Positions 22,500 through 64,000 of a stretch of 64,000 bases of DNA are shown piece by piece; positions within the stretch are counted from its first letter, which is position 1; every line of letters begins with the position of its first letter. The notes beneath the pieces are model-generated. The model saw only the letters and a program-made list of their open reading frames with translations, was not told where the DNA came from and did no database searches. The stretch comes from Lytechinus pictus (taxonomy: Eukaryota), in contig NC_087251.1 in NCBI RefSeq assembly GCF_037042905.1, positions 10,542,001 to 10,606,000 of the forward strand. Reading direction: 5' to 3'. The position numbers were made by a program, and so were the translations under genes.

Positions 22500-22666
22500 T
22501 ACAGTTAATTCTTCTGAATCTAAGGGTGTGTGTGTGGGGGGGGGGGTGTCATACATTTACCCCCTTTCCCTCTCCCCTCTATGTCTCCTTTATCCCATCC
22601 ATCTTGCTGCTCCTCCAGAATGTCACTGTTTATAACTTTGCTCAATTTCTCAATGTATACTTTCAG

Positions 22667-34800: not shown

Positions 34801-35649
34801 GTATATTATTCTAACATTGGCTTTTGATATCAGAAGTTAGTTATTCTACTCTATGGAAAAAAAATAAACTGGTGCTGGGGGTGATTTTGCCCTCAAAATG
34901 CTCAAAGGAGCCCTGGAAAATATCAATTTATTGCAGTGTTAAATCTTATCCAGTATTGCAGATTTAGGCATTAAATTGTGAAAAGTAGCCCCAGAAAATT
35001 ACTATTATTATTATTTTTTGCCTGGCAGTTGTACTCTAGATATTGCAGACTGACATTTGACAATAATACATGCATTTAAAGTGATATGCTACTGTTTGAT
35101 TTTGATAGGTTTTCATTCAGAGATGTAAACAAATACATGTATAGGCATACATGTATGTCTTAGGAAGAATTTTAAGGTTTACAGATTTTGTACCAGATAT
35201 TCTACATAACTAGATACTTTGAAATATTAAAGTTTGACCATTTAATAAAGAATAATAATTTTGGGCCAATTTTCACTACCTTTCAACCACCTAAAATATT
35301 TGAATTACACTGCCTTTTACAGGAGACATCAAGTTTGCACCAAAAGTTGGCTACTTGTATGCCTTTTTCGTAGTTTTTAATAACACTAATCAAAGCATGT
35401 CTTTTTTTCTGTAGGGACATCTTCAAGTCTTATAAATACATCAGTAGCTATTTTACTATTTCAGTCACTTTAGTTTTCGCATTTATTTGAAGTTAGCCTG
35501 ACCACATTTCATATAAGAAACACCCTCAAAATGTCTCACACAGGCCACAAAAAATGCATGAATATTTTAGAATTTTGGTTAGCCTAAAATGTAGAACATT
35601 TAGTATGATTTGTTGATAAAAAGTAAGGAGCATCTATATGTAGGGTCCT

Positions 35650-37790
35650 TCAAAGTCAAGTCGACCCCAGAAAAATGTTGCTTTGAATCAAACAAGAATA
35701 ACACTGAAAATTTCATCAAAATAATGACCAATGGATATGACATGAGAAAGTTTATGAATTTTTTTCAGAATTAATTTTTTTTCTTCACAAAATAGTTACA
35801 TGTATTGTTCAACTCATTGGCATGCAAATGAGAGAGACAGTGATGTCCTCCACTCAATATTTCTTTTTTTTCTATTGTTTGAATGTATGATATTTATTTT
35901 TTTTACAGATTTGACAATAATTACCAAATTGACTGAACTGCTTAATGTTAAAACAATTCTATTTTCTCATGTTCAGGGGAAATGAAACTTTGTTTCACAT
36001 GGCAATGAGGAGACAATTTAAATATTTCATAATTCATAAAATGAAATACGAAAGAAATAGTGAGTGGATGATGTCATCAGTCCCCTCATTTGAATGCTGA
36101 CCAGGATATGTAACCTAATGTTATAACCCGCAAGTGAAAACCCGAACCGTACCGTCCCGTATAATCCAATAATTTGCAAGCGGGACCCGCTGACCCGCCG
36201 GGTTTCAACCCGCAAGTCAATTTATCTTTGAAAAATGAAAATATTATTTCTGCAATCCCCACACTATACAGGCTCAAATAAGGAAAATATATGCCAACTA
36301 CTAACCTAGCCTAGAGTGAATTTACTTACAATTTGCAAATTCGCCTTTTATTCCGGAGAGAAAATGTTTTTTGGGGTGACTTTGTACCACGAAATGGGTC
36401 TGCTCTGATCTCGAAATTGAAAGCATTACGCAGTTAACTCCTCTGATTGGAGCCACAGCTCAGCGCGCGTAGCTAGCCCAGGCTGCCCAGCAAAGATCGG
36501 CAATGTTGTTTTTCAGTCCAGGTCGGTTGACACGGCGACTCACAACAATCATAATTACAATATTCAATTCTATGGGACCTCGTCTATAAAGTAATCAAAA
36601 TTGAAATAAATACCAGGATAATGATACAGTCAATTTTTTCTTGTATATCTCCATATTATTTCCTTCTGTTTTTGTATTTCTTCCAATTTTTTGTTAACTA
36701 ATACAAACGTGTATGAGGGCGCCCATGAACTTACGTAAACAGCCCGTGTTACTAGCTAGCTTAGCTAGCTAGGCTTTTATTTATTTTTTATCTCTCTCAA
36801 TCGATTGGTCAAGAGAGAGGTATTTGCAAGAAACTTGCAATCCATTGCAATCCAATTTTACATCTTCAGAAATCTTAAAGACTTTCAATCAATTGTACAT
36901 CGGAAAAATTAAGAGATCTGGGCATTCAGGGTGCGGGGGCTTCAGTTTTCATCAGAAAATGTATGAAATAACGAAAAGGAGGGTTAGTTAGCCACTATAG
37001 ACCAGCTTAGCATGTCTTCAAAAAAGGGCAGCTAACACTCTGACCTGACGGCACGCTCTATCAGGTCATGACCTAATTTGGTAATCCAATCAGCAAACAA
37101 CTGTCTCACTGCTGTGCACTGCAAATCCCTCGAGCTCAAACAGCGAGCATTGCCGTGGAAACAGGCTCGACTCGCCCCACTCCAAGTCATAAAACGTTTC
37201 TTTCTCTGCCACGTGGCCCAACACTCGCTCCTTGCCAGACATGATTACGCAATGTATTCTGGCTTCTGTTTACATTCTCCGAACACATCCCCTCCCCTCT
37301 CTCTCTATCTCTCTCTCCCCCTCTCCCAGTCGTAAAACATTCCTTTCTCTGACCATGGACCTATTACGAAATAGGTCCATGCTCTGACTGCGCATCACTG
37401 GCGCTCCTTTGAAAGAGCAACTCGATGTATTATGTCGAACTGTCTCAGTCCTGTTCACTGTTCACAAGACAAAAATACGCCGGCATTTTTTAAAAGGAAA
37501 TATCTAAGTCTCTGAAAGAATCCGCCACGTAAGAAGCACATGATCCTAACTCAATTTTCATTGTTAATGTTTTTATTTATGCGTCGTTACTTCTCCCTTT
37601 TTTTCGTATGACGGTCTGCGGGTTTGAGAATGAACTCGGCATACCGGCAGGTTAACCCGTACCGCAACGGGTGCGGGTTACAACATTATTGTAACCAGTT
37701 GTTTAGTGAAATTAAGTGAAACTTTAAAATGTCCCAAGTTTCTTATTTTACATCCGATTTTGGTGAAATTTTCACTGTTATGTCCTTTAA
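35650..37790. mobile_element. Diverged copy of the 5685-6289 Kolobok-like MITE, split by a nested insertion
   Basis: AAGTCAAGTCGACCCCAGAAAAATGTTG...; homology resumes after 37696 and ends ...GTCCTTTAA. Confidence 0.7.
36116..37688. mobile_element. hAT-like non-autonomous element
   Basis: ATGTAACC|TAATGTTATAACCCGCA ... TGCGGGTTACAACATTA|TTGTAACC (8-bp TSD, 7 of 8); subterminal ACCCG/CGGGT repeats. Confidence 0.82.
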
Positions 37791-40700
37791 TCATACCGGC
37801 AAAGAAGATAAACTCTATCATGAAAAAAAAAAAAAACTGAAAAGATAGCTTCTGAAACTGGGCATGCTGTTAGAACATGGATCTACATGTATAATCAACC
37901 CCTGAAAAGTTTCATACCTCTACTTCATATACATGTACTTCAACATCAACATATAATTTGCATGTTTTTCTAAATTTTGTTGCTATGTACATGTATGATA
38001 CACGTACACAAGTCAATGGGAAAATCATTGTTTTGTATTGCATGCACCAATATTCTTTTACATTTAAATGTCCTTTGTTTTCAAGTTGTATGGGATGTAC
38101 AATGTACATACTGTACAGTACATGTATCTGCCCATTTTTGTTCTGTTTGGATGAAATTTGGCACATTTTACCGTAGAACATGATTTAACATCATGATATT
38201 TGGCTGAATATTGAGTCCAAAATGACACTTTTTACAACTGTGATATATTGAAAGCAGAAACAAATATTCTAAATTGCTCAATAAAATTGAGGCAAAAAAT
38301 TGCCTTAACTTTTTCAAGTACCGTATTTATAAGTTTGGCAGTTATAAGTAAAATTTACTTATTTTCTTTGCATCCATTTTACTCAAGTAAATCAAGTTAC
38401 AACAACTTAATCCAATTCAGTAAAACAATCTTTGAAAAAAAAAGAGAAAAAAATGGGGGACTTGACTTTGATGATTCGAAAGTCCGCCCCCCCCCCATCG
38501 TCGGACGTCCTATGTTCAGTGGCATCATTTTCATCTTAGACATCTTTTATCCAAATATTAGACTTAATGCATTGTTACTTGTACCTGTACATGATAGGTA
38601 CTGACATACATGTACATGTATGTGACCGGTTCATCCTAACAAATAAAACAGTGAGAGTAATATTAACACTTTCCAAAACCTAAAAAGAAATCTGACATTT
38701 TCTGGTAGTGACTGTTTAATGTTGCTCTTTCTTTGATTCAACAAAAGAATAAAATATTTTGCACACCCTAATCCAAAACAATTTCAAACACAAATAGATA
38801 TATGACAGTGATTTAAAAGGTTTAATATTTACTTGCTCTTAATGAATATTCAGGTATTAAAGGCGTTAATTGAAAAATATAAATACATTCAACATGATTT
38901 TAATAATCATTATGTAAATTGCCTAATGGGATTTATATTTACTTAATTGAAGCAAGCTAGCAATACATGAATTTTCGTAAATGTATATTGAACCCAAATA
39001 AATAAAGTAAATTGAAAGATTCATGAGTTAAATCTGAAAAAAAATCTAGAAATAGTTACAAATAGTAAATTCTACTTATATATAATTAAGTGTTAAATAC
39101 TTATTCAGAGAATTTTTTTCACAGTGCAGAGTATTCACTGTGATGACTGACAAAAACCATTTCTAAGGACTGTTGGGCAGGTTCATTATTTGATGGATAG
39201 GCAAAGAACAACCAAGAACAATAAATATGAAAATACCTACATGTATTACTCACATTAAAAAATTAATGTTAATCTGATAAACAGATGAATAATATTAACA
39301 AAAAATATTACTTATGAAACTTATAATAGGTTCAATGAATATCAAAATAGAAAAAAAGCATTCAAATGAAATTGGTTTTGGACTCCATCATCTAATTTTG
39401 GAAGACTCGGATCAAACAATCTTGGGGACTTTGATGATGCCATTTGCGATTTGTATAGTATGTGTGGCATGTGGCGAGCTAGTGAGACAGAACTTGGTAG
39501 ACTATACACATGTTCTCGCAAAATTAATCAACACTTTCAAAAGATGTAACTTTATACAGAAAAGCATTCATGTACATTATTTTGACACACTTTACTTTTG
39601 ACAAAATAAGTGACAATATCAACTGAAATTCCTAACATCTGAATTACATTGCTCAACCCAGTAACCCATGGTACCCCTCTCTCCTCACTTTATTTTTGAG
39701 CGTATTTACCACCATTTTAAATACCTAAATAATGTGAGCAATGAGATACGCAATGCAAGGTAAACATATTTGCGCCGCCGACAAAAGAGAGAGAGAAAGA
39801 GAGCTTTGGCTCGATAGATAATGTCCATTGCTCGTATAGCGTAGACTTTGCTCTGCCCGAATCGTTAAAGAGAAGAGCTGAGTGAGTGAAAGAAATCGTG
39901 GACGAAGTAATTGACAAGTTTATTCTAGGATCTGAAAGCAAATTTTTTTTTTTTTTATTATTCAGGTTTTGGTGTAGGCCTGGTTTACTGTTTTGGGGGA
40001 AGTTCATGGTTGGTGGCTTTGCCCTGAAATTTTTCAGGGTAGTTGGCACCCGCCCAACGTGACACGTGGTAGTGAGAACGTTAATTTGCATACATTTTAA
40101 TGTCCTGTCATTTAATACATGATCTTCAATCTTCAAAATTAGGCTTGCTTTTGCATGATTCCACAATTTCTTTTTTATTAAGAAAATACTGTAATATGAA
40201 ATAACAAAAGTTTACTTTTGTTCATGAAACCCATGTATTTGACCATGGCCAGCTACTCAGCTAGAAGTTGCCGATAAATGGTGCAGTACAAACTTGGAGC
40301 ATGGGATAAAAAGAAAGTTGCTTGATCCCTCTCCTCCATAACAACTCCCTGATCAAAGTGGGTCAGGAAATTCAAAATGTAAAAATGACTTTGCTTAGAT
40401 TACTGCAAAAGCGGAAGTTTACCCTGATAATATACAAAAAATTTGTTTTATTAAAAGAAAAAAAATTGTGAAGTTTTGACGAAACTCAAAGAATTTTTAA
40501 TTTATTACATCATACATGCAAACAGTACCTCCGTATCATGTAGTATAAATTCCATTAAAATTATTCAGTCGAACATGATATTTGAAATATTTTTCTTATA
40601 GGAGGGGTTTGATGTGATGTGTCTGATTGTATCCCCTGCACAAATAAAATCATCAAATACTTTAAAAATTTGTATTTTGGGAATTTATATATTATATCAC

Positions 40701-41110
40701 AACAAATTATAGAATTGCTCGTCTGTGGCATCACAAATTCAAAACTTAACAAATTATTATGGATATTCTTTGACAGAATTTCATCAAACTTTCACCGATA
40801 TTTTTTATTTTTGTGCTTTAATTTAAACCAAAGTATTGTCATGGTGAACTTCCCCTTTCATATTATCGACCCTTTTATCATTGAAGCTTCAGATGGGCTT
40901 TAAGGGGCAATGAGCTGTAAGTAATTATTAGCTTACAGGAGCTAAGGTAAATTCCTTGTGTGATATATGAATACTCTAGGACATTTGTATGTTTGTTGTA
41001 TGTTTTTATTATTGTAGTGACTACATTAACAATCTTACATGTACATGTAAGATCAGTCCATTTTTTTCTGATGTGTCAACTAATACATACACGTATGCTA
41101 GTATGCTACT

Positions 41111-43411
41111 GGGCATTTTCACGGTAACTGACATTACACGGCACAATGTTTTCACACCTTTCATTGTGTGTATCTCTAAAACAACAAATGATGGGAGTTT
41201 GCTTTTGATAGAGTTAATAAAGTGAACCTTGCTGTATACTCTGATACTAAGTTTTCCTATGTAACCACATTTTTTTACGCATCAGCAAGCAAAAATGTGT
41301 CGATAACTGACATTACGCAAAAGGACATGCAATTTCAGGGTGTTCATTAAAATTGAAATATCTCATGTCCCTGAGTAGATAGAGTAATAATTTGAATATG
41401 TAAATATACCTCCGTTACTAGGTTAAGATGTGTCAAAATATTAAAAAATTTGTTTTTGTCTTTTGGGAACTATGATAATTTTTCCACAACCATGCTGGTA
41501 ACTGACATTACGGTAACTGACATTACACTTAATTTGCCATAGAGATAACACATGGAAGTCAAATGTGTGGAATCATTGCATTGTATCTTCTGTGCAGGGC
41601 TTCACATGAAAGTGAGCTTGATGTGGAAGTATACCCAAGTTTTTAGGAACATTTCAATGAAAAACTTTTTTCTTTTTCTTAATTCCTTTCTTTGATTTGA
41701 ACATTTTTTTCATTACTTGTCGGTAACTGACAATACACATTAACATTTGATGATTTTCAAAGGCATACTTTTCTTGGTACTTATATGTAAGGCTTTTCAA
41801 AATCATAAAAGTTTCATAATACTTCACATTTTTAATTATCAAAAGATAAGAAATGTATGTTTTACTTACTCGGGGGGGGGGGGGGGTCATAGCAGCTACA
41901 TGTTTTCCTATAGTAATTTAATATTGCATTGACTGTACACATGGATTTTTCTGACTATACACCCATAATATATTCATCAGTTTTATATTGACTTTTTAAA
42001 CCTTTTCCTTCTCCAACCTCCCCCTCCCCTCAAAAAAGGCAAAAATGAATAAGGGTCTCCTCCCCTAGGCTACATGTACCCCTCCCCCGAATCTCATGCA
42101 GCCATGTAGTTTTATTGAGTTCTATTCTGGTCAGTGCAAGCAATGCTTGTTCATATCTGTCGGATTTCAATTCTCTTCATAATTTGTTTAATCATTTTAT
42201 TTGCTAATTTCTTTTATAAGCTGTCAACAAAAAATAAACTCCAGCTTCTAAACTGAAACTGCACTATTTGTAAATTAGAAAAAAACGTCAGTTTTAGTAG
42301 ATCCATGCAACATTGATCAGAACTGTCAAATTTAACTTTTCATCTATACTTGTAAACCAAAAACAAAATTGTATCACACATCCACACTACTAACAGGTAT
42401 AAAAACCAGGAATTTACTTTTAGCGAGGCAATGCTCAAAAGAATCCTAGAAACTAAAAAAGGGACCCTGGAAATCCCCTTCATCACAATGTTAAGCTTTA
42501 AAAATGTTGCAGATTTAGGCAATAGGTTGGGAAAAGTACCCCCTACCCCCCCCCAAAAAAAAAAACCAAACAAAAAATTGTCTGATACAAACAATTAGGT
42601 ACTTGGTAAGTGCATGTACAAAACAATTTCATAGTAATTTTTTTTTGCACGATGGGAATGTAACTTCCTTCATAATTTCATATAGTATTCCTTGTGAACT
42701 ATACCTTTTAAAAGTCAATAGCAAGCTCCTTCTGGTGTGACTTGACTTAAATAACAAGTATACAATATTTCTTCACCGTAAAATTGACCACATATTTGCA
42801 TTTCAATATTGGTAACCAACGTTTTATCATGGTGACTGACATTACATCTCGGTAACTGACATTACATTTTCCACTTGGTAACTGACATTACATATATTTA
42901 ATGGTACCCTATGGCTTCATTGTTAATTGGTAATCTTTAATTTTGGTGTAGAAGGGAGGGGTGTTACCTAGAGAGGAAATCTACCAAGTATCATATAATA
43001 TATCCTCTTTTCCAGGAAATGAGAAAAAAAAGTTCATGTTTTCGGTAACTGACATTACATACCATATCACATACTTCATCACTGTTTTTTTATCAGATGA
43101 ATGAATTACTGGTGTTTCTTTCTGTGGGATTTTAAAAAGTGTTATTATAGCAAGCTAAATCACAGGCGAAAACATCATGATCAAACCTGTTCTTTAAAAA
43201 TCTGTCAAAACAAAATATGTATCAATATACTATTTTCAACACTAATTTGTATCCATACTTTGGCAGCCATTTTGAAATAAAAATGGCTGCCAGAGTCGGA
43301 AAAAAAATGTTGTCTCAGAAACTTCAGGTCTTGTTTTATTAAAAAACATGAAGCATTTTACATGAATATCAACTTGATTTTTTTGCCTCTGTGTCCATCT
43401 GTGGTGAAATG
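41111..43411. mobile_element. Sola-like non-autonomous element with repeated GGTAACTGACATTAC motif
   Basis: Starts GGGCATTTTCA; about 9 copies of the 15-mer between 41123 and 43058; right end uncertain. Confidence 0.5.
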
Positions 43412-44280
43412 TACTGTAGTTATTGAAAGACATCATTATGTTTTTAAATCTGTAATCTTGAAAATACTGAAAGTGCATCTTTTATTTTTTTTAAGAGAAA
43501 AAGTACATGAGTCTACATGTAAGTACTCTGCTCTCTGCATTTGCTTGCTATCCAAGTGAGATGTGAACTTACTCTTTGTTCTGTTCAACAGGATACCCAT
43601 TCAATGAGTTAGTTTTCCATTGGGCCCTAAAAATACATCACAAATAAATAATTCAAAATGTGCCATCTTTAAAAGAGAGCTAAATCCTGACTGTACATTG
43701 TATGCCAGTTGATAAAAGCATCAAAATTAGAGAGAAGAGGGAAAATAATATAACTACATGTACAGTACATACATGTACACGTCCTACATACATGAAGAAA
43801 GAAAAGTTTTTGACTACCCTAGATGTTATCGTTGGTATTATTTAGTGGTTTATGATATTAAACTGAACTACATGTATATTTATAAGTGTGCATACAAATA
43901 AAATAATGCATACATGTACATGTAGATCTGATGATTCATTAGATGCTGCATGCACATATAATAAAATACATTTTAGTCTGGGAAATGTCATCCTACATGT
44001 ACAGTATGCAATGGGCTATGGAATAACATAAATATGTGGGTGTTGCTTGCAATGTGAGTCACAGTATCAAAACTGACAAGATCTTACATTCTTTGGTGAA
44101 TTTTCATCAAGCCTACATGTATATAAATATTTTTCTCTCTTTTTATAAATGAATTTATTAAAAACTAGCCTGAACTCAGGTTTGACTTCCCTTTGAAAAA
44201 TTCATTTGTGATTGCATTTTACATACATGTACAGTACATGCATCTGCTTTTAAACAGACGTTGGTTCCATTTCAAAATAT

Positions 44281-44294
44281 GTTGTCATGGTAAC
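44281..44294. promoter_or_regulatory. Intronic RFX X-box in TOGARAM1 intron 1
   Basis: GTTGTCATGGTAAC, a near-perfect palindromic X-box. Confidence 0.55.
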
Positions 44295-47208
44295 TTGTGT
44301 TGATAGTATCCTTGGGAGTCTATTGCAGTGATCAAGAAAATTGCTTTCTATCATAGAAGGGACAACAGAGGTTGAGATTTATCATCTTGGCCTTTGTGTT
44401 TGACTGCTCAAATCTGCTTTCCATTTGGAAAGTCATGTCGGGCTCGCAGGCATTCCAACTTTACAGTCTTTTCCCATTTTAATTAGAGGCATGGAGTCTG
44501 CTTGAATGTAACTAGAGTAGACAGTCGAGTATTTCATGCATCCTTCAAAGTCTTTTTATTTCTAGGCTGCTTGTTGACTGGTAATTCACGGACAGTGCTC
44601 CAAATCTTGCCGAAAGCCGAAAAGCCATTTTGCTGTTTGCCGGATTTATTTACATGATCATATGTAATAGATAGTTTCTTGGCTGCTATATACTGAGATG
44701 AACATGTATCAGCCTTCTTCTGCGAATGCCTGCTCTCTTGTCATGATTTGATGTTTTTCCTCCATTGCATAAGAACTGAACAAGAAAGCACTCAACCAGA
44801 AGGGTCAAATTTCTTCATTACATGTAGTTGAGAAAAAAAAAAATTCTGAAACAATTTTATTCATACAGTACATGTATTATGTAGGCTGTAGTTAATGCAG
44901 TTTTCAGTATGGAAATATGAAATAGGCCTATTTAGGGATGTAACTTTTTGTGCTTTAATTTGATTTGTAAATATACAAGTAGCTACATGTGCATTACATG
45001 CATACTGTAATGTAGGTACATTAATTTATTGAATTATAACAAAATCAAATACCACCCATCTACGTGTAATATGAATGTACTCTGTACAGTGTAATTCAAA
45101 CATGATCTTTATACATGTGCATATGAAAGTAAATATACTTAATTAATTTGAAGATAGTGATAAATAAAATTACTCTGTAAATACATGTATCTCCTGTCCT
45201 AAATTCTCAGAATCCACAGTGGCAATGTTACTTTCATTTTTTGATACACAGTCACAAACAACTATACTCTTGTTGATATTGATAATGAATAGTTCTTTAT
45301 ACATGTAGAGCTTTTATTATCTAATAGGCATTTATTCAACCACTTTGTAGAGCTGATGTGGTATTATCTCTCAGCGTTTATCAAGGACATTTTCACAGCC
45401 TACGATGAAAGCATGAAACAGAGATGCGTAGGTAGAGGGTGTATAAAAACCCACTTTGCTAGAGACAGTCAGCACATTATGAATATTTAATGAGAATTGA
45501 TTACTTTCTGCTTTTCCTTCCTGTCCCTCTATTATCCTCTGTTCTTTGTGCATCATTGGTTCCTTGATGAATGAAGGAGTTGCTACTTGTATACCAGCCC
45601 CAATGCCTTGTTTGGGTCGATGGTGGTGGGAGAGGAGGTTTATACCAGCAGTCAAATGGGTACTTGAGTTATTCCATACAATGTGTACCAAGCCAAGAAA
45701 TTATCGGGGGGTAGGGATTTTTCTTTACAGATTTTCAATAATACATGTTGCCCAATGTAGACATTTTTTTTCACTTTTTGACCTGAAACACATTCACATT
45801 GGGTCTTTAGAGCATTTAAATGTACATGTACATGCACATTCAGAATATTTTTTTTTTTTTTTTTGGGGGGGTAAACAGTAATTGCATGTACATTTACATA
45901 CAATGTTACATCATTGTGTAATGTTTACAAATAAGTAATGACTCAATGTTATGAATGATTGAAGTACATTTATTTCCAACGATAGAAGCATCAATACATT
46001 TTAAGAACTTGAACAAAACAATGGAGGTACATGTAGCAACTCAGAAAGCACAGCTTGTGATGAGTGCACCGTGACATACACAATAAATGCATAGTACATG
46101 AAAAAACTTATATAAATAGAGTACGATACAAAACAAGGGGAAAACAAATGGGGTAAAAAAAAACAGGTCAACTTTATATAAAATACCAGTATATATTTTT
46201 TATTTTTTTTATATATATATAATTTAGGGACCAGACGTAAGTATTTTTCTTAAGTTTTGTCTTAAAGTTATTATTATTTAAAGTTATTATTATTGTGTAC
46301 TTTAATTATTCAAAGCAATCATGATATTAAAATTCAAATAGCAGAACTTCTGTTGATAGAGAGGAAGAAAATATCCTAAATGTTTACATCCTACAGGGGG
46401 TAACATGGCCCTACAATGTACATGTACATGTACTCAGGTTTCAGGTCCATGCTGAATGGTGTAAGTCTTTTAAGTCATCTTGAACCAATGTGAGATTTTT
46501 AAATAGTCTACATAATTTGAAAAAATTTCTCATGCCTCCACAGTCTTACACATCAAGCAATTCTGAAGTCCACTGAATGTACTTCACCTCGTTTCTGAAA
46601 ATTTAATTGAACTGAGCTTGAAAGTCATGCAGTTATTTGTTGAAGTACATTTGTGTAAACATGGAACATAAGTTTGTGACAGCGTAACTAAGGATCCTTA
46701 TTACCCTCATGATCGCTCCACTATAGGCGTTATAAAGTCAATAATCAGTATCAACAACTGTTGGACATGTAGCAGACATTTTTCTGAACTGGGCTTTCTA
46801 TTTGTACTCTTCTCTTTTATGTACATGAGGATTACCTGACCATACAGTTAGTCCTTACATTGGCTAAGAATAAGTTCCTGGACAACAGTAAACAAAGCAT
46901 AACCCTTGCTACTGCATTCTCTAGAGATTGTACAAACAAATTTATAGATCATTACATTGTATTGTAAAATGTACATTTGTACCCACTCTCTGCCACAGGA
47001 TCTACAAGTTTGGCAACTGTGAAGTGGTCTTCTCTGCTTCTGTACACCAAGTAAATATGTGTAAAGCTGCTCTAAGTGAAACTAAACACTGTAAATGTCA
47101 CCTACATGTACATAGACTTTCTACAAGGGGATTTTCTTTAATATTACAAAGCAAATGCATGTACTGCTCGTGAATGTTTATTGGGTGAAGTACATTGTAC
47201 ATGTATAT

Positions 47209-49775
47209 GGGCAATTCCATGGAAAATGTTCACTTTAGAGAAAAAATGAAGTTTCAGATTTCACTTAAGCAGTTAAATTTTCTTAAAAAGTAATCTATAA
47301 AGTTTCATTTTCCAATAGAAAAATTGCAATATTGAAAAAATTTTGTATTTTTTTCCATCATCAAAAAAATTGATTAGTAAATTGCAAAATCTAAAAAATG
47401 TGGCTATTTTTAAAAAATTCATCATTTCTGTTTCTACTAAAAGCAAATAAGGTCCCAGAGGTCTCTTTTAACTTTTAAATAGTTGATTAATGTTTACATC
47501 AATAGAAAATCATCGTTAAATTTTATGCCATTCATCAATTTTAAAGACATCGATCTTCAGATTTGTGTGATTTCTTTATCATTTTCAGTGTCATGTCCGT
47601 TACGTTTTTCACTTAAAGTTTTCACAGCTTACAGGAAATTTGTCTGAAGGTACTGCAGATTCAGATTCTATGTTAGAATTAAACCCCCTACCATGTGTAG
47701 CAATCATTTTCCCTTACCACTTCTCATTTTCATAAAAATGGCGTAACGGACATGACAAATCGCGTAACGGACATGACGCCTTATATATGACAAAAGGTAG
47801 CATTCACAAAAACAAAATATTAGGCTCAGTGTCACAGACTGAGGTCAGTCTCAATTGCTTGAGGATAGCTGGATGTAATAACTCCTAGAATCTGCATGTC
47901 ATTCAAGCTATTTTTCGAAGTTGGTGAATGATGAAAGTTCAGCTCTTGTTCTGGTATATTTTTCTGAGAATTAACAATATGCCACATAATATTAGGATAA
48001 GATGCAGCTAGATCTGGCAACATACTCAGATCACAATCTGCATCATTTGTGTTTGAACAATACGATTGATTATCTTACAAATGTAGGTGTTTGCACTGAC
48101 AGTTTGGAGCATGATGAAATTCCAACTTGTGAATTCATGAGATCATTGATGATATTGTTCAAAGTATCTGACTTTCACCAACCTCAACTTCTTCAGTGAT
48201 GGCACGGGCTCACATTTAAAAACAAGTTTGTATTCAGATATCTGTGTTACATGATGTAGCTCTATGAATCCATGAATCTACAGTGGCACTTCTTTGCAAT
48301 ATCACAAAGCAAAGGGGCTGTGGAAGGAATGTGGCGCTATCAATAAATTATGTCATCATAGTATTTTGGTCAGCCATAATCACGATTTGAATGATGTATC
48401 TTCATTTGTACACAAGCAGCACGGACAATGCAACATAATTAGATACAGCCACATTTGTCAGCAAGCAAGATAGTAAGATTTAGAACATCCAAGAATTGAT
48501 GAAAGGATGATTATACTCAGGATGATATTTATTTTGAATGAAAAAATCTCAGAAGCGATTTATATACAAACATTCCAATTACCTTTCAACTCATACATAA
48601 TCGATAATGAAAGACTGGTTTCCAGGTACTGCTATTAAATTTTAAAATACTTTTTAATATCATTTTTTTATCTTAAAACTGACATTAATACTATAGTTCA
48701 TATTCTTTATCATAAAATACATTTCATATGTTCATCTTGGATTTATACAGGTCTGGTACATTTTGTTTTCTTCTCACAAAAAATGAGATTTGGTCTTCTC
48801 AGTGTGCCGTAGCAGTACTATTAAACATTGTATTCTATATAAAATTATCATGTAGGCTTTAGCTATTAAATTAATAATACCTGCCAATAATATCTACATA
48901 TTTTTCTTTAGAATGTTAGTAAAGGTACTTTGCTGTTACATAATTACATTCATTCATTCATATTTCTTTCATTTTGAAACTAAGAAGTGCTGATGAAGTT
49001 CACTTCGTAAGGGTGTCATGTCCGTTACGCTAAGTACATTGTCAAATAGTAAGCCATGAATAAAAGATAATCTTTACTATCAACTTTTTCTCTTTTAGTT
49101 TGGTGTGGCGGTTGGTAGTAACTGGAAAATACTCATTAACTGTTGTTAATTGGTGTAAAATAAATTTTTCTAAATATTTGTTTGTTTTATAAATATTGTA
49201 CAAAAAGCCCCTCTCTCAAATTGCAAAATAATAGGAGATATTACAGATTACCAGTTATGATGTGTGTCTCTAACCTCTAGCCTTAACATGTAAACAATTA
49301 GACTTGTACCATATCTTGTAATAAAATAATTATATTCGCTTACAAAAAGTGGACGAAACTGTCATGTCCGTTACGCTTCGTGTGTCATGTCCGTTACGCT
49401 ACATTTTGAGCTATGAATACAGAATGCACTGCAAAACTGTTGTTAAACACCATTTTATGGATAGAGCATGATCTTAAGGTTAAATTAACACCAACATCAG
49501 GTGCATGCAATCTAAGAATTCACAGGAATTTTGATAAGCAATAGGAGGTAAAAATGCTTCGTCCATTTCGTGTCATGTCCGTTACGCTCATAAAGAGTGC
49601 AATTTCTCCGCAACTGTTCAACGAAGCGATTTGAAATTTCATGTGTATGTAACTGATACTTAAATGTGTCTGATAAGCTCAGTAACAATTATCAAAAGAC
49701 TGCTAATTCTACTGTATTTACCTTTGAATTACAAAAATTTGTCTGAACGTCATGTCCGTTACGCTGGAATTGACC
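47209..49775 (+). mobile_element. Sola-superfamily DNA transposon (probably Sola2), decayed
   Basis: ATAT|GGGCAATTCCA ... TGGAATTGACC|ATAT (4-bp TSD); eight copies of GTCATGTCCGTTACG in both orientations; transposase relic inside. Confidence 0.8.
47948..48345 (+). pseudogene. Degenerate DDD-type transposase core
   Basis: Across stops and frameshifts: VLVYFSEN...DKMQ...WQHTQITI, CTDSLEHD, FFSDGTGSH(F)KNKF, QWHFFAISQSKGAVEG, matching the DFSENY / SDGxxxQFKN / WxFFATSHGKGAVDG pattern. Confidence 0.72.
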
Positions 49776-50443: not shown

Positions 50444-50702
50444 ATAACATTCTGTCTGATGGGGTATTTATTCTAGAGAACTTTGAAAGTGCTGTCCAGA
50501 TAAGTGTAAAATGTGTAATGCCATGGATATACACATGTGTGGAGAGTATTTAAAAAAGCATGGAAAGAAATTCCTTATGGTGCGGATGAATAGCTGGAGG
50601 TTTCTTAAGCAACATATTACCTGTCTTCAATTTGAACATGAAAAACAGTATGATATTCCTAATCTGATGAATTGAACCAACCAGAGGACACTGTTACATG
50701 TG

Positions 50703-51265
50703 CCCGGGGGGGCCACTTACATTGACGAGTGGATACCATGCGCGACCAAAAAAACACGTAAAAAGGATGTCTTTTTCACGATAGGGCACGTTACGTACGT
50801 AACGTGATAAGGGTGTCAAAAACACAAAAATAATGAAAAAAGGGTATCTATTTTGCTAGGAAAATTACGTGTTTAGGGTCGAATTCGCGGGGATGATAAA
50901 ACAAAATTAAAATGTTTTATAAAGGATGTCCTTTTTGCCCCAACACTTCGTGTTTAGAGTCCGATTTGCGCGAGGTGTAGAAGGTGGGGTCGTACTAAAC
51001 CAAATAAGGTAAAGCCGACGACCGAAGGACCCGTAACAATAAAACATTCCTGTCGGGATTCCTGTACTCGTTTAGGGGTTCATTTCAGGGAACATTTGCC
51101 AAGAATATCGTTTTGTTACCAATACTTGTTAAGGGTAGGGTTTCACACGCCAATACTTGTTAAGGGGCGCATTTTCAGAATATGGAAATTACGTGTTTAG
51201 GGTGCTTTTCGAGACCCCATGGTCGCGCATGGTATCCACTCGTGAATGGAAGTGGCCCCCCCGGG
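50703..51265. mobile_element. Young-looking MITE with CCCGGG termini and 8-bp TSD
   Basis: TACATGTG|CCCGGGGGGGCCACTT...GAGTGGATACCATGCGCGACCA ... TGGTCGCGCATGGTATCCACTCG...AAGTGGCCCCCCCGGG|TACATGTG. Confidence 0.88.
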
Positions 51266-53344: not shown

Positions 53345-53477
53345 AAACGTGAGGAGCCTGGGCTAAGACGGCCGCCCATCAAAGCTCGGAATACGTGGAA
53401 TGGAGGAGAAGATGTATGGGATAATGCTAAACGTAATCACAACATTGGTACTGATGTCGGATCTGATCAAGGTACAG
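53345..53477 (+). CDS. TOGARAM1: TOGARAM1 probable exon 2 (disordered linker)
   Basis: Acceptor TTTCTCTTCTCAG|; open in phase 0: KREEPGLRRPPIKARNTWNGGEDVWDNAKRNHNIGTDVGSDQG(T); phase-1 donors after 53471 or 53477. Confidence 0.75.
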
Positions 53478-53977
53478 GTATACCGATTTTATTCACATCA
53501 TTGAAATCATCATTTGCTGCTGGGGCAAAAAAAAATTGTTTCTAAAAAATGTCAAAGTTCACAGAGCGAGAAAACATGGTTGACATGACTATCTAATTTG
53601 ATAGTCTCATTCCCCTGTAGTATGGTGGATTGGAATGTTATTTTTTTCTTCATACTAGAGAAGAGTGAAACCTGTGGAATGAATTAGTTTGTATGAAAAG
53701 AGAAAGATAAAAAAATAAGCTCAATGAAAGTTTTAAGAACAATTTGACAAAAAGAAATTTAAAGAAAACTTATGAGCATCTGAATGTTGAGTATGCTAGG
53801 CCTTAGGGAGATCCTCCCATCGACAATGTGACCAAGAAGTGTGATATCACACATGAACTCGGCACTTAATTCAATGTATCTCTTTTTGCTCATTCTAATG
53901 ACAGTAAAAACTCTTTGTGTATGACATATTTTTGTGTGAAACCTGCATTACATATCCTCCCCTAAGGAAAACACCTG

Positions 53978-54321
53978 GGCCCCATCTCACAAAGAGTTTC
54001 GATTGATCCAATCAACCACAACTATGGAAAGCCAGCAATGTCAACATCTAAAACACATTCTATTGATATATGTATATTCACACATTCATAGTTTTCTTGA
54101 AAATTCAGTGTGCTCGTCTTTCTTTACAAAGGACATTGTGCAAATTTCCTGAAGAAAAATTATGATGTTGATGGATTTCCATATACTTGAAAAAATTTCT
54201 CATGCCTCCACAGTCTTACACATCAAGCAATTCTGAAGTCCACTGAATGTACTTCACCTCGTTTCTGAAAATTTAATTGAACTGAGCTTGAAAGTCATGC
54301 AGTTATTTGTAAGACTGGGCC
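53978..54321. mobile_element. Harbinger-like MITE (CTG TSD)
   Basis: CTG-GGCCCCATCTCACAAA ... TTTGTAAGACTGGGCC-CTG. Confidence 0.7.
54187..54310 (+). repeat. Exact 124-bp direct copy of 46517-46640
   Basis: TTGAAAAAATTTCTCATGCC...GTCATGCAGTTATTTGT is identical at both sites. Confidence 0.95.
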
Positions 54322-54324
54322 CTG

Positions 54325-55069: not shown

Positions 55070-56222
55070 CTGATCTATACAGATACTGTTGACATGATAA
55101 AATTGATGATAAGTTGTTGAATGTGCAACATCTCACATCTTATTCGCATTGTCAATGGGAGGATGACTATCACATTATTATCTCAACATTCATAATGCTC
55201 ATAACCTTGCTCAAACTTTCATTGATCTGTTTCTTTAGTCTTTCTGGTTTATTTAATTTGTTTCAAAGGTTTCATTCTCCTGTTGATAATAGAAGTTACC
55301 ACAAATGGATACATTTTGATGAAATGTTGGATTCATGTTTTTTTCCAGATCATATTTGCATTTGTAAAAAAAGAGAGTTAATACATTATAGTGATTTGAA
55401 AAAAATATCATTCCCTTTAGCATATTGTATCAAATTTTGCATTGAAAATTAGATACTAATTAATTAATCAATTAATCCCTTAAAGGCAGAAGACCTGCCT
55501 TTTTCGTGAAATCTTTTTTGTGTGTGAAACAAGTCCTGGTTCAAATAAAATAGAATATAATGTGGCTTTTGTTTTAGTAACTACCTGCATTGATGTGATA
55601 TCCCTTGCTAGTCAAACAATTATTATAATTCATGTATTCGAAACACAAAGCACACAGTTTGTGCCCCGTCGATAGTTCCCTAAATACACTCAAGAGACTA
55701 CAATTATGGTATTTGTTATGTACAGTAGCTCTGAAGAGTTTGAATAGTAGCAATAATGAGTTTTTACATTTAGATTAGTTCTGAATATTACCTTTTATTT
55801 GTTTTTACTGAAAATGAGAACTACTGCATATACAGTACATTACATTTAGGCCTATGTATGTTCAGGGTAAATTTCCCTCAAACTACCGTACTTTTGATTC
55901 AGTGTAAACATTCATTATAGACTGTATTTTTATTTATACTACTGACATGTACATTTTTTTTCTTTATAATATTATTAATATGTTAATTTTGTTAATAGTA
56001 TTTTACGTGTACCTTAGAATTTTAATATTGCAAGTAAATTAATGTGTTTGAAAGATGTTTTTGAAGATTTTTTTTTAATTCTTTCTCCATGTGTATGAAT
56101 AGCACCTCATTCTATCATATTATTTATTTTGTGTGAAATCTAGCGAGTTTAATGCCTTTTAAATTGTATGGCTTTTTTCCTCTCTCTCTCTTTCTTTGTC
56201 TCATCTTGCTGTCAATTCTCAG

Positions 56223-56363
56223 GTTCTAGTGGATCTTACCGTCAGATCCACCTTGATAAGCTGAAAAGAGCATCTCTAAATACCTACCCTGGGAGGGGGC
56301 GAGGTAACTTAGAGGATGAGCCTCATCCATCAGGAAGCCACAGTGCACCAGTCACAGAGAGAG
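56223..56363 (+). CDS. TOGARAM1: TOGARAM1 probable exon 3
   Basis: Long pyrimidine tract and CTCAG|; phase 1 matches exon 2; GSSGSYRQIHLDKLKRASLNTYPGRGRGNLEDEPHPSGSHSAPVTER; donor AG|GTATGT. Confidence 0.78.
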
Positions 56364-57707
56364 GTATGTACCCTTCTGTAGATCTTACATTTTCTGGAAT
56401 CCCCCCTCTGATGTGATTTAAATATAACCATTAAACTAATTTTATTTGAATTTCATGCATTTCAATAAACTACATGTATATGCATTTATTGCAAGCTCAG
56501 TTTCAAGGTATACACAGACCTTTTTGTGTGTATATATGCTGTGTGGACAATAATTTTGAGAAATGTTTGTTTTTGTGATTTGTGAAATTTCAATACATAA
56601 TGGGGTTAAATCAAGGTGAGAAGGTACACTTTATTTCCAATTTTGATTGTGATGTCAATCAGAATAAGCTTCTGATTGACCTCTTGAGTATAAATGTAAT
56701 TAAGCTTTTTTGTCCACAAAATATATTACCGGTATTCCTTTTTTAGGGCAACCTGAAAAGTGATACTGGAAAAATAATCTTGCTCTGTGATTTTTTGGCT
56801 ACATGTACATATAGAAGTGAAAAATTTGTATTATGTCTTTGAAGAAATCAAAAGGGTTGTATTTAGTTCTTGGTAGGGCAATCCACTCGTGTCTGCCACC
56901 AATACTCTGTCATCTATGCAAATCAATTCAAGAGCAGGCAGAATCAGTCTTGCATTTATGCACCTAAAGGCAGCAACTGATTTATAAAGATATGTTTAGA
57001 ATGCATGCCTGTGGCTGTGGTGTTTGGTGGCTGAAAAAAATTCATAACTGTGTGAGAGAGCAAGCGATAAAAAAAGGATTTTACCAGTAATCTGATGAAG
57101 ACCAACAATTGAATAAAATTTCATGAAAGCTGAAGCAGGAAAACAGGATTATTTTTTTGAGAATATGGTAAGGAAGTATAAAGCTCACAGGATTGTTTCC
57201 CAGTTGAATATAAGTTTAAAGTTGAAGCCAATGACCTTTGAATACCCGGTATATTCCAATGAATTCAGAAGAACAGGAGGTATATTGTAGCTACTTGATG
57301 AAAAAAATGTATATTCTTGCGAAAAGAATATTTTTTGTGGGGGCACATGAATTGGCTAATGTACAGTGTACAGGTAGTTATTCTTGTTTGTATAAATTTA
57401 ATTAGATAGAATTAAAAGGTTTATGATTGATTATAAGACATTATTCATGTATCAAACTTATTTGTTTTTACAACGTTGACACAAATGTGAGAAATGTTTT
57501 ATTTGTAAACTTGTGGTAGTTGAAGCTGTTGAAAATGACAAGGTACTGTAGAGTACATGCACATACAAAGTACATTACCTTCAGATGATTCTAATGAAAA
57601 TTTTGTGCCCTTGCTGTACATATATTCTCTTTCTCTCTTCATAAATTATACATTAATATGTAGCAAAAAATAGAGCTTTTATAATTATGTTCAATGAATT
57701 CGAGTAG

Positions 57708-57818
57708 AAAGATGATCTCACACACATGCAATGTGATCAATTCGAGACAATTTTCACTAAGTTTTCTCATGGATCTACTGTACAGTTGATCACATTGCAT
57801 GTGTGTGAGATCATCTTT
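57708..57818. repeat. Perfect 33-bp inverted repeat with 45-nt spacer
   Basis: AAAGATGATCTCACACACATGCAATGTGATCAA / TTGATCACATTGCATGTGTGTGAGATCATCTTT. Confidence 0.95.
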
Positions 57819-60109
57819 GTTCCAATCATAACTTTGGATGAATTACGTATATTTATAACAAGAGTAAGCTACTATCTATTTGATATAAAGTAACCATTAC
57901 TTTATACATGTAGCCTTCTCCCACTACCTTTAGTGGTTATCCTTAGCCCTTGCAGAACTCTCATTTTTGCATGTACTTGAATAGGCTGCGTATGATGGGC
58001 AGAGAAAAGAAAGTATTATTTGCCTTTCATTATTCAATATCAAACTTGAAAAGGGAAAAATACTGCACAACATTTTAGGCCTTTGCAAGGTCTACCAAAA
58101 CTGCATTGGAGCTTTAAGTGTTTTCTGTTAAAATTTAACATCCATGGTGCACTCTTCCTCTTCAGATAAGAAAAAAAAAGAGATCAATTTGTTTTTTTAT
58201 CGAGAGGTCTTTTCCTCCGAATGATTGGGTTGTTTTTCACTCAAACCAACCTTCTGCACTACCAGGAATCGACTAGGATTGTATTGGACAAATTTATTGA
58301 CTGAATTCAGTTCAAATGGTTGTGGATGTGAGTCTTGTGTTTTGTTATTGCACTGTATTAGATGATGATGAATGTGGTAATATCAAGAGCAACAGTATGA
58401 TTTAAGAGAGGTGAAGTGCAGCAATTGTTTTAGGATGTTTTGAATGTTGTATTGTACAATATACATGTTGATACAATGACTATTTTTGCTCTACTGACCC
58501 AACTAAGATGTTTTGTACTGTATTTTACACAAAATGTTTGTAAATTGAGTGATTTTCATTATTTTGATTAATTTAATCCATTTAATTTTGAATATTTTTT
58601 ACTGATACATAATGCAATGATGCTATTAATGTTTGCAATTGTGATTAAACCATACAAATATTCAAAAAGTGGGTGTAACCATTGTACATTTTAATATGTG
58701 TGTATTGTGTTTATAATTACTCTAATCCAATTAATGTCTATTTAAGATTTTGTTATTATTTCATTTCACTTGCTTAATTGTATTGTAATTACCGGTACTC
58801 GTGTGCAAAATAATACTTGCAGTTTTTACATGATCTGCAATGCATTATTTCCAGGAATGCTAGCAGTATTCATGCATTTCAATTTCAAGTCCCAGGATCT
58901 TCATATTTGCAATTAAATTACACATTCAGTATAAACTTCTAGCAGTACAGACACCCTTAACAATTTTTTTTTAATTGATAATTTTTTGTTCTCAACAGAC
59001 TTGAAACTTTGGAAAACTTTTTCTTTTGATGGAGATGATATATTTGGTAAATTCATATTATTATCTAAATCTTTTTTTTTTATAGTCTGTAGTCTCTGAA
59101 TTAATACTTCAGGTTGTCCCTGATAGCACACTATAATTGGTCTATTACTGATCTATTTTAAAGTATACAAAACATGTATACATGTAACCACCAATTTATC
59201 CTTTCTTTCCTTTGGTAAAAGGCATTTCTACTTCACACTTTATGGAATACTAAAATTTCTTCTCCACATCATACTGAATTTATTAACAAAGTCTTTTGCA
59301 TGTTTGGTTCTGATTGAGGGTGTACTAATTTTTTTTTCATCACATTTTATATATGTTTTTCAGATTTCAAAATGAAAATGTATCCCCTATACTAACAGTA
59401 ACACTGCACATTCTTGTATGTACATGATCTTGTGTATTCTCATTCATTTTGCCTACCATATTTTATTTTACTATTAAACTATGATAGTCTACAATATTGG
59501 AGATGTGTACATTATTGTACAGTACGTTTTATCAATGAATTGAATTGAGATTGAATTCCTAACGGTAGGCCTATGTATTACCTGGCAGTGTAACCAAGAA
59601 TGCAAAAAATAAAATGGAATGTACATGTAAAATAGTTCAGCATAATATAGATTATCCCATTGAGCCATGGTTTATGGTAGAATTTGCTCTCAAGTTCAGC
59701 AAATTTATTTTTAGATGTAAAAAGCAGCTGCCATTATTGAAGCTGATTTCATGAGGTTCCTCCAGGAAGGTTTAAGACAATTTCCTGTGCTTTCATCTTG
59801 TGTTTGACGTTTTGTGACAATGAAGTTCAAAGGTAAAATTGTGTTGCATGTGATTGGTGTAAGGGAAATCATTTTTAAAATGTTGCTTAGTATCATTAAA
59901 GCCTGTCTAAGGTTTTGGTAATGGTTCAACAATGTGGATTTCACAAGAGTGTCATTCCAATCTTACATACATGTAGGTGCAGTGACTGTTTAATACACGT
60001 TCATCACTTTACATCCATTCATTTTTGTAAAAAAAAAGACATTGGATGATTTAGCACAATCTCTTGGTAATTAAATTTTTCTTCAGGTCCTTTGAATTTG
60101 AACTCTTAA

Positions 60110-60503
60110 AGCTAAATGATAGTAGTTGCAGTAAACACTGATTTAGTGAGAAAGTCTGTAAAACCAAGTTTAAATATTACTATATCATCGTGGATCTAGA
60201 TCTGGTACAGTTACATAAACTGAACTCTGTGAAATCATAAAATCTAAGCTGAAAAACGATCACACTGAAGATCGCCAACACAGATAGGCACATGTGGGAC
60301 AGTATATTATTATTGCTGGAATAAAGACCTGACGGAAGTGCCCGAATCCGCGCTTATTTTGCTTATTTCTCAGCAATTACACAATTTCTTCCAGAATCCT
60401 TTGGCACATATTTTTTATTCATACAAACAGACACTTGGGTGGTCATTATATTGGATTATGTAAAAAGTCATTTTGAGATCGTTACCAAAACTGGAATTTA
60501 CCT
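60110..60503. mobile_element. Kolobok-like MITE (TTAA TSD)
   Basis: TTAA|AGCTAAATG ... GAATTTACCT|TTAA with imperfect TIRs. Confidence 0.6.
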
Positions 60504-61643
60504 TTAAGAAAGATAGTGACTGCATGTCAGAAATAACAAAGGAACTTGTATCTTAAAATTTCTGGCTCATTCCATGCTTGAGAAATGAATTTTTAAAATT
60601 TGGATCCCGACCAAAATATTATTTTCATTTAGATTAATAAAATCATCTACAGGTGTACTAAAAAGTTTAAATTTGACATGTTATAACAGTTTGAGGATAT
60701 TCACATTCACATAGGATTATCATGTAGGTATGTTGCTGGAAATGCTGAGATAGCTACAAGAACCATATCACATGTCTAGTACAGTCATATCCACAATAAT
60801 TTTTACTCTTGTTATTGGTATGAAAATAAAATAACAAAAGTTTCAAATGAATGTCTATTTTCATGACTGTTACTACTAGTATATGTTTGCAAAGTACAGA
60901 ATACTGTATGTTTTTAGTTTACAGTAAAATACATATTTTCGGAGGGAGGGGGGGGGGGAGATTTCTGTAGCTGTAATTTATCTAATTGGAAACGAGCTGG
61001 AAATGTGTTTTGTACAAGGTTATTTTAAGTAGATGAGATAGTAAAGAGGTTGCATGTTAACTGATGACTTTAATTAGAATTAGAACACCATTAATGAAAA
61101 ATGAGCGAAGTACGGTTTCAATGCCAACCTTCCAAATATGACCTTTTGTCTTGTGTATACACATATACACAATTGAATATACCCGTAATTACAAATGAAA
61201 GTTCTGAAAATGGCAATTTGTGTACTCTTTACATTTAAAAATATGAGTATTGTTAGTTAAAGAATGTTCCTGTGTAGTGCAATTTTTTACTCTTTAAAGT
61301 AACCCACTTTGCCAAAGCAAGTTTGTCTCTTCCTTTTATAGCTTCCTGACTTACATATACATGTGTTTTATTATTTGGATTGCACATTTTTATTATCCAA
61401 TTATGTAGTACTATTTGCGATACTTCTTGCACTTTTTGTCTGCTCTAAAATATTTTTTTTACTGAGGAGTAAAATTAGCATCTTGTAATTTGCAGTGGAC
61501 TGTTCTGTTTTTACAAGGATCCTTTCAATAAAATCAATCAAAAACAGGTTCACTGTCCTGGTACATGTTTGTAACTGCACATTCAACATTTGACCTGTTA
61601 CATTGTTCGGACATTAGCACATATTTTCGTGTAACTCTTTTGA

Positions 61644-62336
61644 AGGGGTACTCTGGGCTGAAAATGATATGAATTTAACATCAGACAAACAAAAACTGAC
61701 AATTTTACCAAAATCGCTTATTGAATAACAAATTTATGATGAATTTTAAAGCTTATATTGCATTATTTAATAAACATTTTCATGTTATCAGGATTATGCA
61801 ACAAAAGGCTGATGATGTCATATGACCACTTATTCTTTGGTATTTTGTTATATGAAATTATGCTTTATATGCAAATTGTTTCCACTAAGAATTAAAAAAA
61901 ATGGATTGGCAATTGATTTAATGCACTAGATATTCATTGCTGCAACTTATTTTGTTACAAGGGAGACATACATAATACACTACCAGTCACAATTCTTTAA
62001 TTCACTATTGCTACAAAGAACAATAGGTTCTGTAAACCAAATCTATTACTCTGTGCTTTGTGTTCAAGAATTGTAAAATGTACTTTATCATTATCATACA
62101 CACATGCATGAAAATGTAAAATAATAATTTTCATGTAATAACATAAGAAAAGAGAAAGTAAGGATGTGACATAAGTTTTCATATAATATATGGCATGCTT
62201 TAAACTGTTTTCACAAAATAGTGCTAAACTCTAAAATTCATTAACTTTATGTACGTCATATTTTGATGAAATTTTTGGCATTTTGCTTCATGAACAATAG
62301 TTTTTACATGTAATTGTTTCACCCCAGTGTATCCCT
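61644..62336. mobile_element. Decayed Kolobok-like MITE
   Basis: AGGGGTACTCTGGGCTGAAA ... TTTCACCCCAGTGTATCCCT; subterminal blocks like the other TTAA elements. Confidence 0.55.
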
Positions 62337-64000
62337 TCAAATATTTTTTTTTGGTATTGGACTCCTGCTGTTGAAAGCAACTTTGAAAAAGAAAAGACTT
62401 TTTACATGTAGTCCACATTCTCCTGTATAGTGCTCAAGTACACAAGGAATTTACTGCAATTTGCTGAATATGGTATTACTTTCATCTCATTGATACAATC
62501 TTGTACCATTTTATTTATGCCTATTCACTATTTGTATGCTAGTGTTTAATGATTTAGAAATTCAAGTAGTACTGTATATAAAGATAGGTTGTGCTGTAGA
62601 TATTTTTTATTTAGCATTTAGCCATTTATCTTTTTTCTTCTTCAGTAGAGAAAGAGAGAGTTGGAGATATGGACATATGTAGACAAGAGCAAGAGAGAGA
62701 GAGAGAGGGGGGGGGGGTAGTTCTGGATATATATGAAGAATTAAAGACTAATGGTACATGTACATGTAGATGCCAAGTCATTTTTTTAACCTCTAATAAT
62801 ACATGAGAAGCATCCAGCTGAAAAGATGACAATAAGAATGTATTTGAGGCAAAATTGGGTAAAACTAAGAATATATTGTCATGGTTACAAAGTGCAGCAA
62901 TGAACATTGAGATGTGTATGCCACTGGAAGTCTGGAATGCACTCAGTGGTGAATAGAATAGTTTTACTGAAGTCAAAAAGGGACTTGATGCATCCATATG
63001 CATTTCGGATTGAATTTTGTCTTGATGCTTTTTCTCTGATGTTTTTTAAGTGCCTTAAAAAGCAGCTGGAACTAAAGCCAGGGTAGTATTGTGTCCCATT
63101 GAATAGGCAACTAGATTATCAGCACTTTATATACATGTACATACATATTTTAAGACATTATTTCAAATTGCAATTGATTTCAAGAAACTCTTACCTACTT
63201 GAAAGCTTTTAACGAAAGTTGATGTTTAGCAGTTGAACACATGAAATTAAGTTAATCTTCAGTGTTTTCTTTTTCTTTTCCCTTTCAATTTCGTTCAAGT
63301 TGTTCAGCACAGTTTAGCACTACTTTAAAATCTATATTATTGGGTTAATAGTGCTTTGATTGACAGATATCTCAAGGAGTTATATTAATATTCTTATTTT
63401 ACACCTGTTAGGTAATCTCTTATGTTACACTGTATGTTCAATTCATGATAAATTACATTCCTCCCTTTTTTTTCTCTCATTTTACAATACTTAGAGAAGG
63501 GTCCACTTTTTCAAATTTATCTTTATATTGCACAGTGTGAGGTTGTTACACGACCTATACTTTATTTATTCTTACCATCCTATCCTATACTGCAATTTTT
63601 ATTAATTAAGCAATTTTATTGATGTTTATCTGGTTTCTACACTACAGAATTTCTTTCTTAATCTTGTTATTTCTAGAATGATTATTTCATGAATAAATCA
63701 ATATAATGTAATACTTGACATTTCACTAAAGGACCTCTTTGTATGCTCTACAAAATATGAACACCTACAGTAAGAGTGTAAATGATATCTCCAGTACATG
63801 ATGAAGTATAAAAAATTCTCTCCTTCCCAAAGATACTTTCTAGATTAGATAAAGAAACCTAATTAACCAGATTCAATTACTGCTAAGAGGACCAAAAAGA
63901 AGGAATAATGTATGTTGCCACCTCATACCAAGTGTAGTTATAAGAGGCATTGCATAGTACATGTAGGTCGACCATCTTATTTAATCAAAAGCACACATTA

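Follow-up and report, generated by a model that had tools for sequence, protein, structure and literature searches.

The introns of TOGARAM1 in the sea urchin Lytechinus pictus are studded with one 8-base palindrome, TACATGTA, most copies of which are probably excision footprints of DNA transposons of the Tc1/mariner type with CA...TG ends. The DNA analysed here, called the window, is a 64-kb stretch of contig NC_087251.1 (positions 10,542,001 to 10,606,000, forward strand). Four TOGARAM1 coding exons lie within it; the protein of exon 1 is 100% identical to an L. pictus entry and 99% to L. variegatus. A few sites show directly that six fixed letters have been added at a TA dinucleotide, in flanks of the Tc1/mariner type. 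A preliminary description of the window had put forward such a footprint, +6 at TA, as its lead idea; the single-TA empty states and the target signature reported below bear it out, and from them we infer the transposon origin.

The window contains 63 copies of TACATGTA, with 54 at 35134-63958 (about 50 by the preliminary description) and 9 at 393-28509, while 100 dinucleotide shuffles of the window gave a mean of 1.7 and a maximum of 6. Density in the 29 kb of TOGARAM1 introns is ~1 per 540 bases, versus 9 copies in the 33 kb upstream, and the contrast in count between the window halves has p = 3e-10. Among 8-mers at 35.1-64 kb the palindrome ranks second, behind poly-A only. Introns 1 to 4 have 42, 0, 3 and 9 copies, and the 2-kb exon 1 has none, as had been noticed earlier. 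Five overlapping doublets occur, at 38607, 41036, 43911, 46419 and 62755; the preliminary description had the first four right and placed the fifth one base off, at 62756, and it allowed a single copy within 3.4-18 kb, where there are two (6936, 7678). The enrichment in the TOGARAM1 introns is real, and the pattern extends beyond TOGARAM1 and is not peculiar to that gene.

It is barely credible that these counts stem from base composition, from a microsatellite of TACATG units or from a single family of dispersed repeats. Markov models of orders 0 to 4 expect 1.1, 1.1, 3.3, 7.2 and 14.3 copies at 34.8-64 kb, far below the observed count. Orders 5 and 6 do come near (33 and 51 expected), having been trained on the pieces of TACATGTA itself, and are hence no test. 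The five doublets would suit a tandem origin, yet Tandem Repeats Finder gave no array of a TACATGTA unit among its 22 rows for the window, and the flanks of the copies have background composition beyond three bases and are unrelated to each other. This explanation is refuted by six-base gaps opposite alleles that lack CATG.

Those gaps were found by comparing contigs of four runs (X1, X5, X7 and X11) with the window over 43400-47300, where 19 copies lie. Cover from X7 and X11 was minimal (9 and 12 records); these runs supply no outgroup and speak neither for nor against. Almost every listed difference between the window and X1 is also found in X5, and the two are therefore counted as one comparison, for which 12 of 94 gap rows (10 events) and 40 of 124 substitution rows were examined; the longest contig differs from the window by 4.3% substitutions. 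Three rows at 45302-45310 sum to one 6-base gap, leaving a single TA in place of the copy at 45300. For the copy at 46028, which lies in a high-copy repeat, a 6-base gap (row 46027) leaves a single TA in 10 X1 and 8 X5 contigs, and further loose ends pass from TA directly into the right flank; because many copies of this repeat have the single TA, the window state is the derived one. The empty alleles at 45300 and 46028 contain no CATG, so neither difference is slippage. The TACA gap at 44220 reflects either slippage or four letters added at TA, as in the usual Tc1 scar, and is the one appearance of the +4 type as a gap among the listed rows. The long X5 contig covers seven copies, at least one of which is a gap among the listed rows, and no substitution falls inside any TACATGTA copy among the 40 substitution rows. 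The preliminary description had proposed to set a +6 indel at TA against substitution of the CpG type; at the cleanly comparable sites, the alternative state to TACATGTA is a single TA.

Decay of TACGCGTA, TACACGTA or TACGTGTA at CpG in methylated DNA, which had been listed earlier as an alternative, is largely refuted, and we give it almost no credence. The introns outside five inserted elements are CpG-poor (observed/expected 0.29), and TACACGTA/TACGTGTA number 4 versus 0.9. Under decay, however, the sister product TATGCATA and the pair TACACATA/TATGTGTA are expected as often as TACATGTA, and they occur 0 and 3 times versus 54; nor is a CpG form found in the aligned partners, among the listed rows.

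Repeats within the window and orthologous loci give further comparisons. In a self-comparison, a paralogue spans only 2 of the 63 copies. One belongs to a three-copy repeat, where the copy at 6926-6943 has both TAGGCCTA and TACATGTA, the 13.7-kb copy has TACTGTA and the 29.7-kb copy has plain TA repeats; the states at one TA run are thus none, +5 and +6/+6, and with both inserts removed 6926-6943 differs from the plain copy by a single mismatch. Scanning metagenomes yielded 18 TOGARAM1-like loci, of which 10 non-redundant, animal-like ones were used after dropping L009 (a near-duplicate of L010) and L012-L018 (distant, non-animal-like matches). These ten have 11 copies of TACATGTA versus 1.5 expected, distributed patchily (zero in 4 of the 10), and the gene-body bias was not replicated in them, with 3 copies in 32.4 kb upstream versus 8 in 32.5 kb downstream (p 0.23). 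Two coral-like loci, L007 and L010, align across TOGARAM1 intron 1 at 85%. Among their three TACATGTA clusters, one is opposite a 7-base gap, a doublet is opposite a 12-base gap that MAFFT confirmed, and one is ambiguous; among four TACWGTA, two are opposite gaps (5 bases; net 4), one is common to both loci and one is ambiguous. AGCTTA follows the coral-like doublet (L007:11970-11990), and the 12-base gap may alternatively comprise one TACATGTA and one TAAGCTTA insert.

Flanks of the insertions point to the Tc1/mariner type. Inserts were collapsed to TA, and T at +3 or A at -3 was then counted per half-site, giving 56 of 98 versus 34.4 expected (p 7e-6). The signal persists when halves that may be decayed neighbours are left out: 43 of 81 versus 27.4 without halves starting CA, and 30 of 56 versus 18.4 without halves starting CA, TG or TA. 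Control TA-NNNN-TA words give 179 of 480. Published target motifs of Tc1, Tc3, Minos, Mos and Sleeping Beauty (SB) all carry A(-3)/T(+3) (PMC2577343), and the SB100X motif, ANNTANNT, has the same A/T pair (PMC8934666).

A second signature is the company that the palindrome keeps. A TA is shared with another scar word in 16 of the 54 copies versus 3.3 expected, and six mixed stacks combine TACATGTA with TACAGTA or TACTGTA, which rules out slippage as their maker. TACWGTA occurs 22 times versus ~9 expected; TACAGTA/TACTGTA is the canonical SB scar (PMC6943129). Two elements of the window, at 18501-19318 and 21727-22499, had been described as having CA...TG ends, and do have CAG...CTG inverted ends with TA flanks. 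The letters that TACATGTA adds (CA, TG) are the terminal bases of these two elements, an agreement that does not imply that their family was the maker. Footprints of the Minos type consist of TA plus four bases from one element end; for a TA-flanked element starting CATG, the window has one weak pair, 44237-47161 (4 mismatches in 20), probably due to chance. Other words are enriched as well: (i) TAGGCCTA, with 8 copies versus ~0.3, is evenly spread unlike TACATGTA (6573, 6926, 7892, 15018, 18493, 44923, 55847 and 59566); (ii) TACCTGTA/TACAGGTA number 6 versus 1 upstream; and (iii) TACAATGTA/TACATTGTA number 7 versus 1.6 in introns. All of these are possibly scars of other families.

Transposases of this type cleave within the element, a few bases from its ends, and end-joining then retains the terminal bases between two TAs (PMC6943129). 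To yield TACATGTA, an element would insert at TA, duplicating it; transposase would cut two bases inside each end; and germline end-joining would fill both two-base overhangs, giving TA-CA-TG-TA. We infer that such excision, in the germline and with both overhangs filled, accounts for the majority of the 54 copies. On this view TACAGTA/TACTGTA would represent the same scar with three bases, and TAGGCCTA would stem from a family whose ends differ. Every scar would create two new TAs, its inner half resembling the target motif of Tc1 (matched at 3 of 4 places) and of SB (4 of 5), a match that would explain the stacks and makes re-insertion into scars plausible. In introns the scars are probably near-neutral; in the exon, where they would insert two codons in frame or do worse damage, they would be purged.

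It is very unlikely that TACATGTA is instead a selected protein-binding site kept in introns, such as an Irx-family site or the MYB-bound motif of Phytophthora. The word has been reported as a binding site (PMC3520976; PMC11134190), and the exact word stands far above its neighbours. Selection predicts neither the +3 flank nor the mixed stacks, though, and TACATGTA arises as an insertion within repeats and varies between close relatives; its one-mismatch forms number 69 versus 20-43 expected, in excess at most positions, as under free decay. Later use of some scars as binding sites is possible.

Comparable scars are known from several systems. Tc1 of Caenorhabditis elegans also targets TA and leaves terminal CA/TG letters, taCATGta being a rare Tc1 footprint there (PMC3520976), and a gap of its TACATA-type +4 kind is seen once here, at 44220. 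The likeness to SB lies in the enriched TACAGTA/TACTGTA, stacked with TACATGTA and found opposite 5-base gaps in paralogues and coral-like orthologues, and in the matching target ANNTANNT; SB differs in being an experimental vertebrate system with a three-base overhang, whereas the urchin TACATGTA implies two bases per end, both kept. Motif-1 of Phytophthora is the same word, TACATGTA, and very abundant in non-coding DNA (PMC3520976; PMC11134190), but lies upstream of genes and not in introns, and its authors read it as a transcription-factor site and doubt a footprint origin. In rice, scars of TA-targeting Mariner elements have likewise been inferred from species comparison, with 94 excisions of which 8 were perfect and most had deletions or filler (PMC4423477). 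The available portion of PMC4700943 has nothing on TACATGTA and regards ACATGT as a neutral site in its 434 genomes, and a literature search, mainly among open-access papers, found no report of TACATGTA abundance in marine animal genomes. The scar type is already known; its density and dominance as an inherited, near-uniform intron word would be unusual.

Several points weigh against a transposon origin, or against extending it to most copies. Known systems behave otherwise: the +4 scar makes up 78% of somatic Tc1 events in C. elegans (PMC12632400), whose germ cells repair Tc1 breaks by homology (bioRxiv 10.1101/2022.08.01.502254), whereas here the +6 type dominates, is inherited and, within old intron DNA, marks ~2.6% of TA dinucleotides; and the rice scars are mostly ragged, without a single dominant word. 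The +4 words TACATA/TATGTA are barely above background in our data (51 versus 41-46 at orders 2-3), and the +3 signal in the ten metagenome loci is not significant (8/20). Both donor-type elements lie outside the TACATGTA-rich region, 63 scars to 2 elements demands very frequent excision, and Pfam gave no transposase domain in 84 of the 268 candidate frames of the window. An element-filled site was not seen among the listed rows at 43400-47300 or in the coral-like orthologues, a sample far too small to expect one. Few of the 54 TACATGTA sites are comparable by alignment, and some of the comparisons have other readings: one X1 contig (record 6) crosses 46028 ungapped, the 45300 gap could be a deletion between two TAs, the paralogue comparison at 35797 is ambiguous and readable as substitutions, L007:13358 is also readable as substitutions, and MAFFT absorbed the 7-base gap at L007:11767 into a 43-base gap.

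A process free of transposons might also add a fixed six letters at TA, through break repair that uses a nearby TACATGTA as template, the word thereby spreading itself, or through a host or domesticated enzyme cutting TA in methylated gene bodies. We think this unlikely. It predicts the same +6 gaps, no filled site was seen among the listed comparisons, and it would accommodate a single dominant product, the local clustering of copies (20 of 47 gaps are at most 150 bases versus 10.5 expected) and the fall of TACATGTA density with rising CpG content (rho -0.45, 64 bins). Copying, however, would spread any TA-NNNN-TA word, and the next commonest has 10 copies versus 54; moreover, the insert equals the ends of resident elements, is accompanied by TACWGTA and sits in Tc1/mariner-type flanks. 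We know of no enzyme that cuts TA in methylated gene bodies to add six letters.

To return to excision by Tc1/mariner-type elements, ages and rates were estimated with a rough model. The one-mismatch excess fits a steady gain over ~0.15-0.3 or more substitutions per site, and not a recent burst or active upkeep. The introns minus the five insertions have 54 copies in 23 kb, equal to 2.6% of TA dinucleotides, and the implied rate is ~1 scar per 37-53 substitutions; under the model the long X5 contig should show 0.7-1.0 new scars, and at least one is among the listed rows. The five insertions, inverted-repeat elements totalling 5.8 kb, CpG-richer and delimited by eye, have 0 copies versus 10.8 expected; these are young elements, so scars are missing from young DNA. 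Intergenic DNA upstream is rich in both repeats and CpG. A membrane-protein gene with its CpG-poor 3' region has 5 copies in 14 kb (p 2e-5 versus introns), and a fumarase-like gene has 2 in 3.6 kb (p 0.09 versus introns). Two simple accounts of the regional excess were rejected: that any gene body is rich, by the count in the membrane-protein gene of this window, and that CpG depletion is the sole cause, since CpG-poor 1-kb bins hold 6 copies in 11 bins upstream and 43 in 22 downstream. Most likely the excess would reflect old intron DNA that has long collected scars, plus short-range hopping. DNA age and local hopping may suffice, and an extra preference for methylated or germline-transcribed chromatin is possible. 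Published abstracts describe CpG-poor gene bodies as methylated in invertebrates; here the putative link to gene-body methylation amounts to a correlation with CpG depletion, confounded with DNA age.

Features of the window, in window coordinates
Position	Strand	Feature	Remark
6926..6943		TAGGCCTA + TACATGTA in one copy of three-copy repeat	
18487..18500		TACATGTA + TAGGCCTA stacked directly on left end of element at 18501	
18501..19318		Element without coding sequence; long inverted repeats with CAGTG ends, flanked by TA	possible donor type
21727..22499		Element without coding sequence; CAGTC ends, flanked by TA	possible donor type
32827..34800	+	Coding exon 1 of TOGARAM1, without TACATGTA	
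35134..63965		TACATGTA field, 54 palindromes, TOGARAM1 introns 1, 3, 4 (42, 3, 9)	
44220..44236		Stack TACA + TACATGTA + CAGTA	first TACA missing from X1 and X5
45300..45307		TACATGTA facing single TA in X1 and X5 contigs	direction of change not polarised
46028..46035		TACATGTA within multi-copy repeat, other copies mostly single TA	polarised +6 insertion
53345..53471	+	TOGARAM1 exon 2	edges from sequence reading
56223..56363	+	TOGARAM1 exon 3	edges from sequence reading
58999..59046	+	TOGARAM1 exon 4, short	edges from sequence reading

Some further observations concern TOGARAM1 and its insertions: (i) The splice donor of exon 2 (53471-53479) is GTACAGGTA, in which two GT lie six bases apart within a scar-like word. 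(ii) Identical 124-base copies are found inside the gene at 46517-46640 and 54187-54310. (iii) An inverted-repeat element with AT flanks, at 47198-49773, directly follows a TACATGTA copy and has CATTGT on both sides; the long X1 and X5 contigs both end at 47198, the first base of the copy beside the inserted element. (iv) The non-coding element at 50703-51265, with CCCGGGGGGG ends, lies between exact direct repeats of eight bases, TACATGTG, which differ from TACATGTA by one letter; it is of a different transposon class, inserted on a scar-like site. Of the neighbouring genes, the fumarase-like one occupies 1-3600 on the minus strand, with a Lyase_1 match at 11-316 and an exon at 2186-2311. The small membrane-protein gene has four exons at 15537-22819 on the plus strand; its only Pfam match is a weak one to MARVEL (E 0.004), and it is presumably TMEM179-like.

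We suggest, tentatively and with considerable doubt, that in urchins, corals and other marine animals a cut-and-paste cycle targets gene bodies that are methylated and transcribed in the germline, that germline repair turns its excisions into a single fixed product of six bases, and that this is a major unrecognised mutational process (~1 scar per 40-50 point substitutions here), self-feeding because each scar is a good new target. If so, past transposase activity could be mapped across the genome from one 8-mer, and the question of how the same word arose in Phytophthora promoters would be reopened. Excision normally leaves no countable record; with a fixed scar at ~2 per kb, two assemblies would allow germline excisions to be counted and dated, and the scar would also map transposase action and reveal the germline repair path. 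Scars add many small indels to introns, and motif searches in these animals will bring up TACATGTA although it is not a binding site.

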